Source: Deltaproteobacteria bacterium
GTDB lineage: Bacteria; Bdellovibrionota; JACOXK01
Assembly (NCBI GenBank): GCA_016186995.1
Contig: JACPKQ010000016.1
Coordinates: forward strand, 5,627 to 69,626
DNA length: 64,000 bases
Direction: 5' to 3'
Positions within the stretch are counted from its first letter, which is position 1; each line of letters starts with the position of its first letter. The position numbers and the translations under genes are program-made. The notes beneath the pieces were generated by a model. The model saw nothing but the letters and a program-made list of their open reading frames with translations, was not told where the DNA came from and searched no databases. Below are positions 1,324 to 3,399 of this stretch, piece by piece.

Positions 1324-1569
1324 TTAAAACTCAAGAATTTTAATTCCTTTATCTGTAATAATTTCAACAATCCTTCCCTTTTTTTGAAGGGGCTCTCTTT
1401 TGTTTTTTTGAGAAAGCAATCCTTCATAATAAGCCCGTTCAGCACAAATTTTACTGTAGAAAAAAATAAATCCTATCAAAGCAAAAACAAAAGAAAGTAT
1501 CAAAAAAGTATACCCTTTCTTGTGCTCAAAAAACCATCTAATAAAAGAATAAAAATAAGTTTTTTTCAT
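1324..1569 (-). CDS. small hydrophobic membrane protein; last gene of the pilin-like operon, start uncertain (1569 or 1626)
   Basis: ORF 1324..1626 with an internal Met at 1569 followed by a hydrophobic helix (GYTFLILSFVFALIGFIFF). Co-directional with the pseudopilin genes. Confidence 0.3.
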   Translation of the reverse strand: MKKTYFYSFIRWFFEHKKGYTFLILSFVFALIGFIFFYSKICAERAYYEGLLSQKNKREPLQKKGRIVEIITDKGIKILEF

Positions 1570-2041
1570 CTTGCCATAAATAAGCTTGAGAAGCTTCTTT
1601 TTCAAAAACAAACCATCCCATTTCATTTTTTACCTCCCAACCCTGTTTTAAAAATTGTTCTTTATAGTATGAAAAAGCATCATGTGCGTCTTCGGCACCC
1701 TCTAAAGTATGAAGTACTTTTTCCCCCAATCCAACTGTAAGAGCCCCTTCCCCTTCATATTTTTCAAAGTTATGAGGCAAATCTGCCATGATCTCAAATT
1801 CTTCCTCATTCAAACTTTCAAGATTAAAACCTAAGGTGGCTGCGCTATCTGGATTCCCGCTTGTGCCTGTGGCTAGTGACGGGAATGACAGCACACTCCT
1901 ATTTTTTTCTTTCTCTATCTTGTGGTCTCCCAAAACCCCAATTTTTTGAAGTCCCACAATACATAAGGGAATCAAAATGATAAGAATAAGACATAACTCT
2001 ATAAGAGCTTGCCCTTTTACTTCACAAATTTTGTTTTCCAT
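1538..2041 (-). CDS. TadE-like pseudopilin (third), carrying an in-frame palindromic-repeat insertion
   Basis: N-terminus MENKICEVKG|QALIELCLILIILIPLCIVG has a short leader, then G followed by QALIE and a hydrophobic helix (TadE/Flp-type prepilin motif with E at +5). The residues SFPSLATGTSGNPDSAATLG are encoded by repeat element 1835..1893. Confidence 0.55.
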   Translation of the reverse strand: MENKICEVKGQALIELCLILIILIPLCIVGLQKIGVLGDHKIEKEKNRSVLSFPSLATGTSGNPDSAATLGFNLESLNEEEFEIMADLPHNFEKYEGEGALTVGLGEKVLHTLEGAEDAHDAFSYYKEQFLKQGWEVKNEMGWFVFEKEASQAYLWQDEKNLFLFFY

Positions 2042-2682
2042 TGTCGTGATAATAAACTTTCTCCTTCAAATCGAAGCTCACCTTCTTTATGGATCAATAA
2101 ACTCCCCTGATTTAGAAATCTTTTAAGAAAAATTCCACGGTATAAAAAAAGAGCTTTTATTTTTAAATATTGCTTTTCAAAAAAATCTTCTTTCAAGCGA
2201 TATGGCCCTGGTAGTTCTAAAATATAAGATCTTTCTATGTGATAGTGCGGTTCTATTGGGCTTAAATAGAACCACATTTGAGGAAATTCTATTTTCATTT
2301 TAAAAAATGGAATAAGGGAAGAATAAAGAATGGGGTTTAAACTTCTATCTTGAAGCTTTGCAAGGGACTTAATGGCTGCTTTAAGCATTTCTTCGACGTG
2401 AAGGCTCGCCACCTTTGAAACACCTCCTAAAAGACTCAATGCTTGAAGTGTTCTTAAAAAAGCATGGAGAGTGACCAATGTTTGGTTCGTTATTGCTAAA
2501 AACTGAAGCCCCTTTTTTTGAATTTCTCCACATCTTTTAAGAACCTCATCTGAAACTTTTTGGGTACGAATATGGTAAGAATAAATTTCACAACACTCAA
2601 AAATAAAAAAAATAAAAACAATAAAAGGTACCATAAGCACAAGAAAAAAGGGCACAACTTGGCCTTGTGAACTATTTTTCAA
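2017..2682 (-). CDS. TadE-like pseudopilin (second), probable TTG start
   Basis: The ORF track begins at a TTG at 2739 that overlaps the upstream gene. An in-frame TTG at 2682 gives MKNSSQG|QVVPFFLVLMVPFIVFIFFIF, i.e. a 7-aa leader plus G|Q site plus hydrophobic helix, parallel to its neighbours. Confidence 0.45.
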   Translation of the reverse strand: MKNSSQGQVVPFFLVLMVPFIVFIFFIFECCEIYSYHIRTQKVSDEVLKRCGEIQKKGLQFLAITNQTLVTLHAFLRTLQALSLLGGVSKVASLHVEEMLKAAIKSLAKLQDRSLNPILYSSLIPFFKMKIEFPQMWFYLSPIEPHYHIERSYILELPGPYRLKEDFFEKQYLKIKALFLYRGIFLKRFLNQGSLLIHKEGELRFEGESLLSRQWKTKFVK

Positions 2683-3043
2683 GATAACACTTCTCTTTAA
2701 ATGACAGTGACTGGGACAAAAATGTGCCCCAAGGAACAAAGTAATTCATTTGAATTTCTACTTTTAAAAAAGAATCTGTATTTTCAAAAAAGAGAAACTT
2801 CATCTTTTTCCTCAAAGGTAATAAAGACAATTTTTCTAAAATAACGGTTTTAAGCCTTTCCTTGGAAACCTCATTTTCTTCTTGTACTAAAAGCTTTCGA
2901 CACTCTTGATAGAGAATATTTTTTAAAAGAAATTTCTCACTTACAAAAAGCCCCCATAAAAGAAAGAAGAAAATAAGAACAACTAAAATGGGCAGGCTTA
3001 AAACACTTTCAATAAGGGCTTGCCCAAGGTTATTTTTAATCAT
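2672..3043 (-). CDS. TadE-like pseudopilin (first)
   Basis: The internal Met at 3043 gives MIKNNLG|QALIESVLSLPILVVLIFFFLLWGL, a TadE-like N-terminal domain (G, then E at +5, proline, long hydrophobic segment). It starts 2 nt after the flp stop. Confidence 0.55.
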   Translation of the reverse strand: MIKNNLGQALIESVLSLPILVVLIFFFLLWGLFVSEKFLLKNILYQECRKLLVQEENEVSKERLKTVILEKLSLLPLRKKMKFLFFENTDSFLKVEIQMNYFVPWGTFLSQSLSFKEKCYLEK

Positions 3044-3284
3044 CACTTCGTCCTTCAGATTTATAAAAATCATTGAGCCCCCGCTTTCTCCAATGCTTTT
3101 CTTCCACGCTTTCAACTTGAATATGGTTAGCGCTCCTACCTTGAAGAGCCGCTGTAATTTGAGAAAGTTTTGCTTTCACAGTATGGCCAAAAATACTGAC
3201 AATCCCAATAGATGCTACTGATATAAGCGCTACCAAAATGACGTACTCAATCATGCCTTGCCCCTTACAATTTTTTATTTTCAT
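3036..3284 (-). CDS. flp: Flp/Fap-family pilin
   Basis: MKIKNCKG|QGMIEYVILVALISVASIGIVSIFG contains the Flp signature G-x4-E-Y followed by a hydrophobic stretch. The protein is small, and a GGAGG ribosome-binding site lies 7 nt upstream of the ATG at 3284 (minus strand). Confidence 0.6.
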   Translation of the reverse strand: MKIKNCKGQGMIEYVILVALISVASIGIVSIFGHTVKAKLSQITAALQGRSANHIQVESVEEKHWRKRGLNDFYKSEGRSDD

Positions 3285-3399
3285 AAAAACCTCCAATACC
3301 CATTGCTTTTGGGCAAAAGCTTTCTTAGCAAAGCCCGTACCAAGTTTTTATGGTCATAACTCATGGAAAAGTGTGTCAAAATGAAACACTTGAAATTAG
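3285..3399. promoter_or_regulatory. divergent promoter region between flp operon and SPOR gene
   Basis: 115-nt AT-rich gap. On the minus strand, ttggaggtttttATG places a GGAGG ribosome-binding site before flp. Plus-strand ttgaca-like (gtgtcaaaatg) and ttgact elements lie near 3373-3423. Confidence 0.3.

Follow-up and report, generated by a model that had tools for sequence, protein, structure and literature searches.

The operon and its products

Five overlapping genes run from position 3284 to position 1324 on the minus strand of the window, as the whole 64-kb stretch of DNA analysed here will be called. They encode one major pilin (flp), three minor pilins (g2, g3 and g4) and one small membrane protein (g5). 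This operon is genuine, and what it encodes are probably fibre subunits of a Tad/Flp-type pilus, set apart from the assembly machine. The features are given below, with a slash marking the predicted cleavage site of each prepilin.

3400-4050, SPOR-like gene, divergent, flanking the operon
3327..3342, minus strand, predicted sigma-54-type -24/-12 box TGGTACGGGCTTTGCT, 58 nt upstream of the flp start codon
3036..3284, minus strand, flp, Flp-type major pilin of 82 aa, MKIKNCKG/QGMIEY
2672..3043, minus strand, g2, TadE-like minor pilin of 123 aa, MIKNNLG/QALIES
2017..2682, minus strand, g3, minor-pilin-like protein of 221 aa with a TTG start, MKNSSQG/QVVPFF
1538..2041, minus strand, g4, second Gly-x4-Glu minor pilin, 167 aa, MENKICEVKG/QALIEL
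~1848-1895, palindromic element GTCATTCCC...GCGGGAATCCAGA, inside g4
1324..1569, minus strand, g5, one-pass membrane protein of 81 aa from the ATG at 1569, or 100 aa if translated from 1626
1283..975, gatC, flanking the operon
40626-42696, pilM, pilN and pilO, above Pfam thresholds
42734-43084, PilP, 21.9 bits, under the cut-off of 25.6
43051-45012, PilQ-like gene, with AMIN and STN domains above threshold

Neighbouring genes share overlaps of 8-32 nt, the start of g2 overlapping the stop of flp, and a scan of the minus strand for terminator-like sites found none. The operon sits between gatC and the divergent SPOR-like gene, where an earlier note on this DNA had placed it; the L006 orthologue of the latter gene has a weak SPOR match. 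The four ORFs quoted in that note (flp, g2, g3 and g4) are all present in the sequence with the N-termini given for them. The four-gene operon that it drew leaves undescribed a fifth conserved gene, g5, inside 1324-3296.

The ATG of flp is preceded at 6 nt by GGAGG. Its product follows the Flp/Fap pilin pattern: a short basic leader (MKIKNCKG) ending in Gly, a mature start (QGMIEY) in which x4-Glu-Tyr follows that Gly, then VILVALISVASIGIV, with about 20 hydrophobic residues, and a conserved charged tail after the hydrophobic helix at the C-terminus. Residues E13, Y14 and I16-L20 are invariant among eight homologues. The closest named homologues are annotated as Flp family pilins, the nearest, at 44% identity, coming from the MAG of a Bdellovibrio sp. 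Against Pfam Flp_Fap the protein scores 30.7 bits (E = 2.8e-7), below the cut-off of 32.2, and the precomputed Pfam annotation of an identical protein gives PF04964, in agreement with its description as an Flp-like pilin. For g2, the score against Pfam TadE (PF07811) is 18.3 bits, under the cut-off of 22.9; among 32 homologues, 10 match TadE at E <= 0.1 (best 6.1e-6) and two match TadF. The profile check that had been suggested for these proteins therefore leaves Flp and g2 of the window just under the cut-offs and gives clear signals at the level of the families.

The g2 family has a mean identity of 21% over its 32 sequences, and its sole invariant columns are G7 and E12, the Gly and the Glu at +5. 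An AF2 model of g2 (single sequence, pLDDT 69) has a helix of 52 residues at the N-terminus, together with a second, short one and three strands. In the g4 family, whose 12 homologues all occupy one and the same place in the operon, G10, Q11 and E15 are invariant, and the C-terminal domain is confined to this clade. A Pfam search with the window g4 protein gave no match; two of its 12 homologues match TadE weakly, and two match N_methyl, the T4a motif. Profile-profile comparison pairs the g4 and g2 families over the N-terminal 37 columns (probability 92.6%, E = 4.5e-7), and the g2, g4 and g3 families can be aligned in register at their N-termini. Homologues that had lost Gly-x4-Glu would have spoken against a prepilin reading; Gly and Glu are kept in 32/32 g2 and 12/12 g4 homologues. 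The palindromic repeat that the note had seen in one member is present in g4, and copies of it lie elsewhere in the window at ~19715, ~37868 and ~53933.

The g3 protein is identical to NCBI HYW47_04040 (221 aa). In its 22 homologues, all at the same operon position, G7, N66, Q111 and Y161 are nearly invariant and Glu at +5 is absent from every one. Thus, among the three proteins that had been called TadE-like, g2 and g4 carry Gly-x4-Glu and g3 belongs to a separate, larger family. Most class C g3 homologues carry Gly/Phe, a T4a-type cleavage site. Only 6 matches to g3 were found among 1.84 billion representatives; a word-index search returned the protein itself only and not the L005 orthologue, which is 45% identical, so that absence from that index is uninformative. 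Window g3 has no match in Pfam, including Tad (PF13400), which is matched by one of the 22 homologues (E = 3e-4). The g3 family is therefore narrow and outside Pfam coverage, a new detail of this analysis. The AF2 model (pLDDT 89, pTM 0.76, from a 6-sequence alignment) shows a long N-terminal helix, a hairpin of helices and a beta domain of small size, for which a fold search found no solved homologue. A type IV (pseudo)pilin fold, in which a long alpha-1 helix at the N-terminus packs on an antiparallel beta sheet, is a possible one for g2 and g3. Profile searches against PDB sequences gave marginal matches only (Geopilin domain 1, E = 0.005; Caulobacter PilA, E = 0.66).

We propose that g3 may be a tip or backbone subunit. 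TadG-type minor pilins are generally larger than g3, and TadG proper has a large C-terminal domain, often vWA. Since PF13400 is unmatched, g3 is likened to TadG/KilN in its putative role and is not assigned to that family.

The fifth gene is conserved in L011 and L005, with a C-terminus of the form IxEfIxxxgxKxLEF. The Gly ahead of its hydrophobic stretch is not conserved, and g5 is not a prepilin. It has no match in Pfam or NCBIfam. The idea that g5 is a truncated version of the protein at position 5 in other locus classes was dropped, there being no detectable homology. Those position-5 proteins resemble CpaB/RcpC by eye alone, and two of them have no Pfam match.

Two six-frame scans, one requiring Gly-x4-Glu near a start codon and the other K/R/N/S/Q-Gly-Q/S/A/T/F before x3-Glu, found the motif followed by a hydrophobic stretch nowhere in the 64 kb outside the operon; Flp and g2 were recovered in one scan, and Flp and g4 in the other. 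This bears on the view that these are ordinary signal-anchored membrane or secreted proteins whose Gly-x4-Glu is incidental. The sub-threshold Pfam scores of the window proteins and the indecisive fold searches are what such proteins might give. Incidental residues would hardly, however, stay invariant at Gly and Glu+5 in families of about 20% mean identity, nor be confined to one operon of the window, nor have Flp family pilins as closest named homologues, nor recur in relatives in a gene series linked to a secretin and CpaF (see below). We regard this view as extremely unlikely.

Conservation of the gene series and of a predicted promoter

The order SPOR-like gene, operon, gatCAB is common to the window and at least two other uncultured relatives (L005 and L011). 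Over 20 metagenomic loci share, in this order, the series flp, TadE-like gene, g3-like gene and gene for a small Gly-x4-Glu protein. This four-gene core, in which the third gene encodes the large subunit without Glu5, is found in three genomic arrangements; a trimmed, Flp2-like form (MxxEY) occurs in class B loci. In six more distant relatives (L009, L032, L036, L038, L042 and L043) a CpaF gene is found at a distance of 7-9 kb from the series, reached in L032 for its first 65 residues only; the CpaF genes linked to the series bear the NCBI name CpaF in Bdellovibrionales. In four of the six (L009, L032, L038 and L042) tblastn places a secretin beside the CpaF gene, with a Pfam Secretin match as well in L009, and in L043 and L036 the ORF directly before cpaF has no secretin match. 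Some relatives carry the gene series alone, and others the secretin and CpaF alone.

Every one of the seven class A loci (the window with its Logan copies, L005, L006 and L010-L013) has a box of the form TGGYAY-N5-TTGCY, with variable spacers, at 42-58 nt upstream of flp. The box fits the sigma-54 pattern, with GG at -24, GC at -12 and fixed spacing (TGGCAC-N5-TTGC), and the window holds two matches to it against 0.24 expected. The conserved sigma-54-type promoter is a new detail, whose regulatory function we infer from the sequence. In L005, genes for a PAS kinase and an NtrC-type activator form a pair 7.5 kb downstream of flp. A FliA-type promoter (TAAA-N15-GCCGATAA), sought upstream of flp, had zero matches in all loci.

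The operon is under purifying selection, with dN/dS of 0.04-0.24 (0.04 for flp, L011 versus L012). The genes might instead be what is left, silent or in decay, of a Tad locus that has lost its machinery, as the lack of machinery nearby, the repeat element within g4 and the silence of Bdellovibrio flp3 (PMC5430801) could suggest. Decay is at odds, however, not only with these dN/dS values, but also with five ORFs that are all intact across lineages just 35-45% identical, with the invariance of the cleavage Gly and Glu5 among g2 and g4 homologues, and with the conserved promoter box; a remnant seems to us very improbable.

Pilus machinery in the window and beyond

The earlier note had reported no Tad machinery nearby, and this was borne out: the 64-kb window yielded no Tad ATPase, secretin, platform protein or A24 peptidase on reading of ORF translations, in tblastn with a CpaF and a Tad secretin, or in Pfam searches of 30 other ORFs, and a scan of the window for a T2SSE-type Walker motif also found none. 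The nearest machinery is, as the note had it, the T4a pilMNOPQ set at 40.6 kb, PilP being below threshold. For the genome at large, an HYW47_ or HYS98_ CpaF was sought with a relative's CpaF and was not among the best 120 of 2512 matches; one NCBI match in that search, P0090, is from another assembly. A RecG scan of GTDB representatives gave only a Legionella locus at 41% identity, from which it follows that the MAG and its close relatives are absent from those representatives.

In our opinion the operon probably supplies the filament of a Tad/Kil-type (type IVc) pilus, as its pilin and tip module, and the genes for the machine would lie elsewhere. The proposal of an orphan minor-pilin module serving such a machine fits the relatives in which the same series stands next to a secretin and CpaF, and the note's other suggestion, an uncharacterised small-pilin set, is not needed. 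"Stand-alone" is apt in that machinery is missing from the window, and less so as a peculiarity, such an arrangement not being unusual (PMC5430801, PMC12075869).

Under this proposal, the four prepilins would be inserted into the inner membrane, and a prepilin peptidase would then cleave them behind the conserved Gly. Flp would be the major subunit of the fibre. The two Glu5 proteins, g2 and g4, with the larger Glu5-less g3, may act as minor pilins that form a priming and tip complex, from which the Flp fibre would grow. GspK, a minor pseudopilin without Glu5, sits at the pseudopilus tip in type II secretion (PDB 3ci0), and g3 would take the role that GspK has there and that TadG/KilN has in Tad pili. 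A CpaF-type ATPase and platform would drive polymerisation and an RcpA-type secretin would provide the exit, all encoded elsewhere in the genome, with g5 as a putative small inner-membrane accessory. Transcription would start at the sigma-54 promoter and depend on an enhancer-binding activator, which is expected because the promoter is of the sigma-54 type.

Alternatively, the type IVa machine (PilD, PilB, PilC and PilMNOPQ) may process and assemble the module in place of a dedicated Tad machine, so that the Flp fibre, or merely the minor pilins, would be a second cargo of the T4a system. We know of no Flp-type pilins polymerised by T4a platforms, and the gene series of the distant relatives adjoins a Tad-type secretin and CpaF, not T4a genes. 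On the other side, pilMNOP and the PilQ-like gene lie inside the window, which together with the best 120 CpaF matches yielded no Tad gene of the host genome, and the T4a-like features of the pilins themselves (Gly/Phe in most class C g3 homologues, the N_methyl motif in 2/12 g4 homologues) point the same way. In addition, all Bdellovibrio genomes are reported to lack TadV though Flp pilins are needed (PMC5430801), and PilD has been proposed as a promiscuous peptidase of the Myxococcus Kil pilins (PMC12075869). On balance, assembly by the type IVa machine appears unlikely. A stronger form of it, in which the clade has neither a dedicated Tad machine nor an Flp peptidase, so that PilD would cut and the T4a apparatus would assemble a sigma-54-controlled module, is distinctly improbable; if true, one machine would build two unrelated fibre types, a hybrid pilus.

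Relation to known Tad and Kil systems

The canonical tad locus brings together genes for pilin, pseudopilins, peptidase, ATPase, platform and secretin; examples are flp-tadV-rcpCAB-tadZABCDEFG of Aggregatibacter and cpa of Caulobacter (Tomich et al. 2006, as cited in PMC12075869). The window operon shares with it an Flp accompanied by TadE/TadF-type pseudopilins, with the same Flp-type cleavage site and Glu5. In contrast to the canonical locus, the window has the pilin and pseudopilin genes only, and g3 is without a vWA-type TadG domain.

Parallels come from predatory bacteria. Bdellovibrio has a TAD locus (bd0109-bd0119) and, besides, the non-TAD flp3 and flp4 (Avidan et al. 2017, PMC5430801); all Bdellovibrio-like organisms are reported to have such unlinked flp genes, and in Bdellovibrio some of these are essential for predation (PMC5430801). 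The likeness lies in an Flp with G-x4-EY, in an flp away from the machinery and in the small pilin-like genes that come after flp. There, however, only single flp genes are unlinked (PMC5430801), whereas here a whole module is, flp with three minor-pilin genes and g5. The TAD operon of Bdellovibrio is FliA-dependent, in contrast to the predicted sigma-54-type promoter here, and the position-2 protein here retains both leader and Gly, in which it differs from the "trimmed" Flp2 (MxxEY).

In Myxococcus, KilLMN form Tip clusters of their own, accompanied by Flp-like adapters, and the Kil tip1-4 genes are reported to be restricted to Myxococcota (PMC12075869). The Kil system of Myxococcus xanthus likewise has three clustered minor pilins, one of them large, apart from the machine genes: kilL, kilM and kilN are TadE-, TadF- and TadG-like, and the large one forms the backbone and tip (PMC12075869). 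The Tip clusters sometimes adjoin an Flp-like gene (the adapters KilK and KilO), and the major pilin gene is also unlinked. The three minor pilins of a Tip cluster are predicted to form a heterotrimer through their alpha-1 helices. The window operon has, conserved, three neighbouring prepilin-like genes, of which one is larger and lacks Glu5; it is by this arrangement of genes that the operon may be likened to the Tip clusters.

The operon is thus a new example of a known arrangement, already documented in predatory bacteria, and the current understanding of Tad pili is unchanged by it. With it, an uncultured, low-GC and probably Bdellovibrio-related clade joins the bacteria whose Tad pilin and tip genes lie apart from the machine, and the sigma-54 control predicted for it contrasts with control by FliA, as demonstrated in Bdellovibrio. 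Should contact with prey be a function of these pili, as it is in Bdellovibrio and Myxococcus, the module would be a candidate determinant of prey interaction.

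The operon and its protein families

The minus strand of the window carries, from 3284 to 1324, five closely spaced genes, the start of each overlapping the end of the preceding gene by 8–32 nt (a slash marks the cleavage position; Glu5 is the Glu five residues after the cleavage-site Gly):

3284..3036, minus strand, flp: major pilin candidate, 82 aa, N-terminus MKIKNCKG/QGMIEY
3043..2672, minus strand, g2: 123 aa, N-terminus MIKNNLG/QALIES
2682..2017, minus strand, g3: 221 aa, TTG start, N-terminus MKNSSQG/QVVPFF
2041..1538, minus strand, g4: 167 aa, N-terminus MENKICEVKG/QALIEL
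about 1569..1324, minus strand, g5: 81 aa, one-pass membrane protein, not a prepilin
3036-3140, minus strand: charged C-terminal tail of Flp, residues 48–82, from A1, the alignment of Flp homologues

A GGAGG lies 6 bases 5′ of the flp ATG, the GC content of the operon (0.34) is like that of its surroundings, and there is no minus-strand terminator-like site within the operon or ahead of gatC (1283..975). The g3 product has the same sequence as NCBI protein HYW47_04040, encoded by a 72,920-bp contig of a "Deltaproteobacteria bacterium" MAG. The observation of a pilin/minor-pilin operon in the earlier note is borne out by ORFs and N-termini present in the sequence; all four genes that it claimed are there, but it did not describe a fifth member, g5. 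Two six-frame scans of the entire window, with different constraints on the residues flanking Gly, placed Gly-x4-Glu with a hydrophobic stretch in the operon only, one in Flp and g2 and the other in Flp and g4.

Flp scores 30.7 bits against Pfam Flp_Fap (E = 2.8e-7; cut-off 32.2) and g2 18.3 bits against TadE (cut-off 22.9), and no meaningful match to g3, g4, or g5 was found in Pfam and NCBIfam. Taken alone, the window proteins carry weak family signals, and the case depends on comparison with relatives. The Flp search returned close homologues at 64–74% identity, a 126-aa relative at 39%, and, at 44%, a protein of a Bdellovibrio sp. MAG named "Flp family type IVb pilin". The tail of about 35 residues (LQGR..VE.VEEKHWRKR.MNDF.KS) is conserved and charged in this clade; Caulobacter PilA (45 residues in PDB 8u1k) has only a short tail by comparison.

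The 32 distinct second-position proteins have a mean column identity of 21%, and no column is invariant except Gly and the Glu five residues on; Pfam TadE is matched by ten of them (best E = 6e-6), TadF by two. In the 12 fourth-position proteins Gly, Gln, and Glu are invariant, and their N-terminal profile matches the g2 family with a probability of 92.6%. The 22 g3-like proteins differ: the Gly ahead of the hydrophobic stretch is nearly invariant, none has Glu at +5, just one touches PF13400 in Pfam, and Gly/Phe is the cleavage-site reading in most of those from class C loci (below). The earlier label of "three TadE-like" proteins therefore holds for two of the three, g3 belonging to a different, Glu5-less family. 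That family is narrow, with six members among 1.84 billion representatives in a full HMMER pass; a word-index protein search with g3 returned g3 alone and missed orthologues of 45% identity, which were found by tblastn and the full HMMER pass. The g5 protein is kept in class A loci with a C-terminal motif, IxEfIxxxgxKxLEF, but its Gly is not conserved, and thus it is no prepilin.

Built on six sequences, the AF2 prediction for g3 reaches high confidence (pLDDT 89, pTM 0.76); its N-terminal helix spans 80 residues, and it also has another long helix and a beta domain of five to six strands. For g2, a model predicted from one sequence (pLDDT 69) gives a helix and then three strands, in the order of a pilin; a fold search with it was uninformative. 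In the close pair of relatives L011 and L012, dN/dS is 0.04 for flp, 0.24 for g2, and 0.04 for g3 (first 117 codons), values that are rough because dS is high. Selection maintains the genes. It could be argued that the genes are a decaying remnant, or that the Gly-x4-Glu motif is incidental; both are unlikely, given the invariance of the motif, ORFs intact at 35–45% identity, and the low dN/dS.

Gene order in relatives

Three arrangements around flp emerge from the contigs of Flp homologues and from 56 loci obtained by scanning metagenomes with the Flp alignment. In class A (the window, L005 of GCA_016182335.1, and L011; partially L006, L010, L012, and L013), a SPOR-like gene diverges from flp-g2-g3-g4-g5, which is followed directly by gatC, gatA, and gatB. 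Class B (L014-L019 and others) has flp, a leaderless M-x-x-I/L-E protein, a g3-like protein, another leaderless protein, a 161-aa membrane protein, dnaX, and recR; on contigs of 82 and 225 kb, the surrounding 10 kb contain neither CpaF nor secretin. The second and fourth genes after flp (L014-L019, L021, L024-L026) encode minor-pilin-like proteins that start M-x-x-I/L-E, with neither leader nor Gly; they resemble the "trimmed" Flp2 described for Bdellovibrio and would need no prepilin peptidase.

Class C (L009, L032, L036, L038, L042, L043, and many short contigs) has flp, a TadE-like protein, a g3-like protein, a 50–90-aa Gly-Gln-x3-Glu protein, a 150–210-aa membrane protein, and further genes, with a response regulator, a secretin, and a CpaF ATPase 7–9 kb downstream of flp. 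Of the six long loci, four gave a detectable secretin; Pfam Secretin and T2SSE matches are on record for L009, and homologues of the ATPase are named "CpaF family protein" of Bdellovibrionales by NCBI. No T2SSF gene follows cpaF. In the gap separating the pilin module from secretin-CpaF, all six long loci (L009, L032, L036, L038, L042, L043) carry on the opposite strand a gene for a secreted protein of 540–800 aa; L009 has two such proteins, and the one of 647 aa contains long Gly-rich repeats, the other, of 674 aa, Cys-rich repeats. By description, this protein recalls the large Bd0109 beside the Bdellovibrio hit locus.

Solitary secretin and CpaF two-gene modules occur in two other assemblies (L066, 8694-11134 on a 1.93 Mb contig; L067, 1963-4307); their flanks, covered for some 10 kb (a shorter stretch on one side of L067), contain no flp operon, and neither module has an adjoining platform gene. 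Since such pairs stand alone, as do pilin modules lacking a machine, the two are often unlinked in this group.

Regulation and the rest of the window

All class A loci have a sigma-54-type box, TGGYAY-N5-TTGCY, 42–58 nt ahead of the flp start codon, and the spacers differ, as a functional -24/-12 element predicts. The window has two such boxes against 0.24 expected; the other, TGGCACATCTTTTGCT at 42778-42793 (+), is within the 5′ part of pilP, just upstream of a pilQ-like gene. L005 encodes a PAS/HisKA protein together with an NtrC-type sigma-54 activator (12525-14470), 7.5 kb downstream of flp and past gatCAB and asmA; the two are possible regulators of the box. The window does not extend to the matching part of its contig. 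No locus gave a FliA-type match upstream of flp; the TAD operon of Bdellovibrio, by contrast, depends on FliA (PMC5430801).

No T2SSE-type ATPase, T2SSF platform protein, Tad secretin, or A24 peptidase is found within the 64-kb window. The main rival explanation is that the module is served by a type IVa machine, which we consider improbable. For such a machine, pilM, pilN, and pilO are confirmed in the window; PilP reaches 21.9 bits, under the Pfam threshold of 25.6. In the PilQ-like protein (43051-45012, 653 aa), AMIN and STN domains exceed their thresholds, whereas Secretin_N falls slightly short of its own (27.3 bits, cut-off 28.2) and the Secretin domain is short and likewise below the cut-off (22.9 bits against 27.5); the protein could be a secretin that has diverged or been shortened.

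The window also holds a family of short palindromic elements, GTCATTCCC-(8–24 nt)-GCGGGAATCCAG, at least three copies of which lie in-frame inside ORFs:

about 1848-1895: in g4, read as SFPSLATGTSGNPDS
about 19715-19750: 5′ end of ORF 19630-21537, read as IPASAGMTEGA
about 37840-37881: 3′ end of ORF 36302-37909, read as SFPPEALGTSGNPESEA
about 53900-53946: a further copy

Translations read by eye give two sets of respiratory complex I genes back to back (22462-29872 and 29876-39326), both apparently with nuoA, H, J, L, M, and N, and the second also with C, E, and F. At 63125-63529 is a CesT/YbjN-family protein (Pfam E = 2.6e-8), from the family of type III secretion chaperones. In Myxococcus a needle-less type III system operates together with the Kil pilus, but nothing in the window ties the CesT/YbjN protein to a Kil-type pilus.

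A putative pilus subunit module

We propose, from sequence comparison, that the operon is a subunit module of a Tad/Kil-type pilus, whose partner assembly machine is inferred. Flp would be the fibre subunit, and g2 and g4 minor pilins bearing Glu5. As has been argued for GspK, Glu5 is dispensable in the first subunit of a fibre, which has no earlier N-terminus to pair with, and g3, a large subunit without Glu5, would occupy the very tip.

In the model for Myxococcus, the tip complex consists of three minor pilins, KilL, KilM, and KilN (TadE-, TadF-, and TadG-like); the machine genes are separate from several tip clusters and from the gene for the major pilin, and some tips are accompanied by Flp-like adapters (PMC12075869). 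The window module fits this published Kil model, with a minor-pilin set apart from the machine, and its arrangement also fits Bdellovibrio-like organisms. The operon had been called "stand-alone", which is correct in that the window lacks Tad machinery, but this is a known arrangement (Myxococcus, PMC12075869; Bdellovibrio-like organisms) rather than an unusual one, and the earlier interpretation is partly supported. What the locus adds is modest: the sigma-54 box, the g3 family, and the clade-specific g5.
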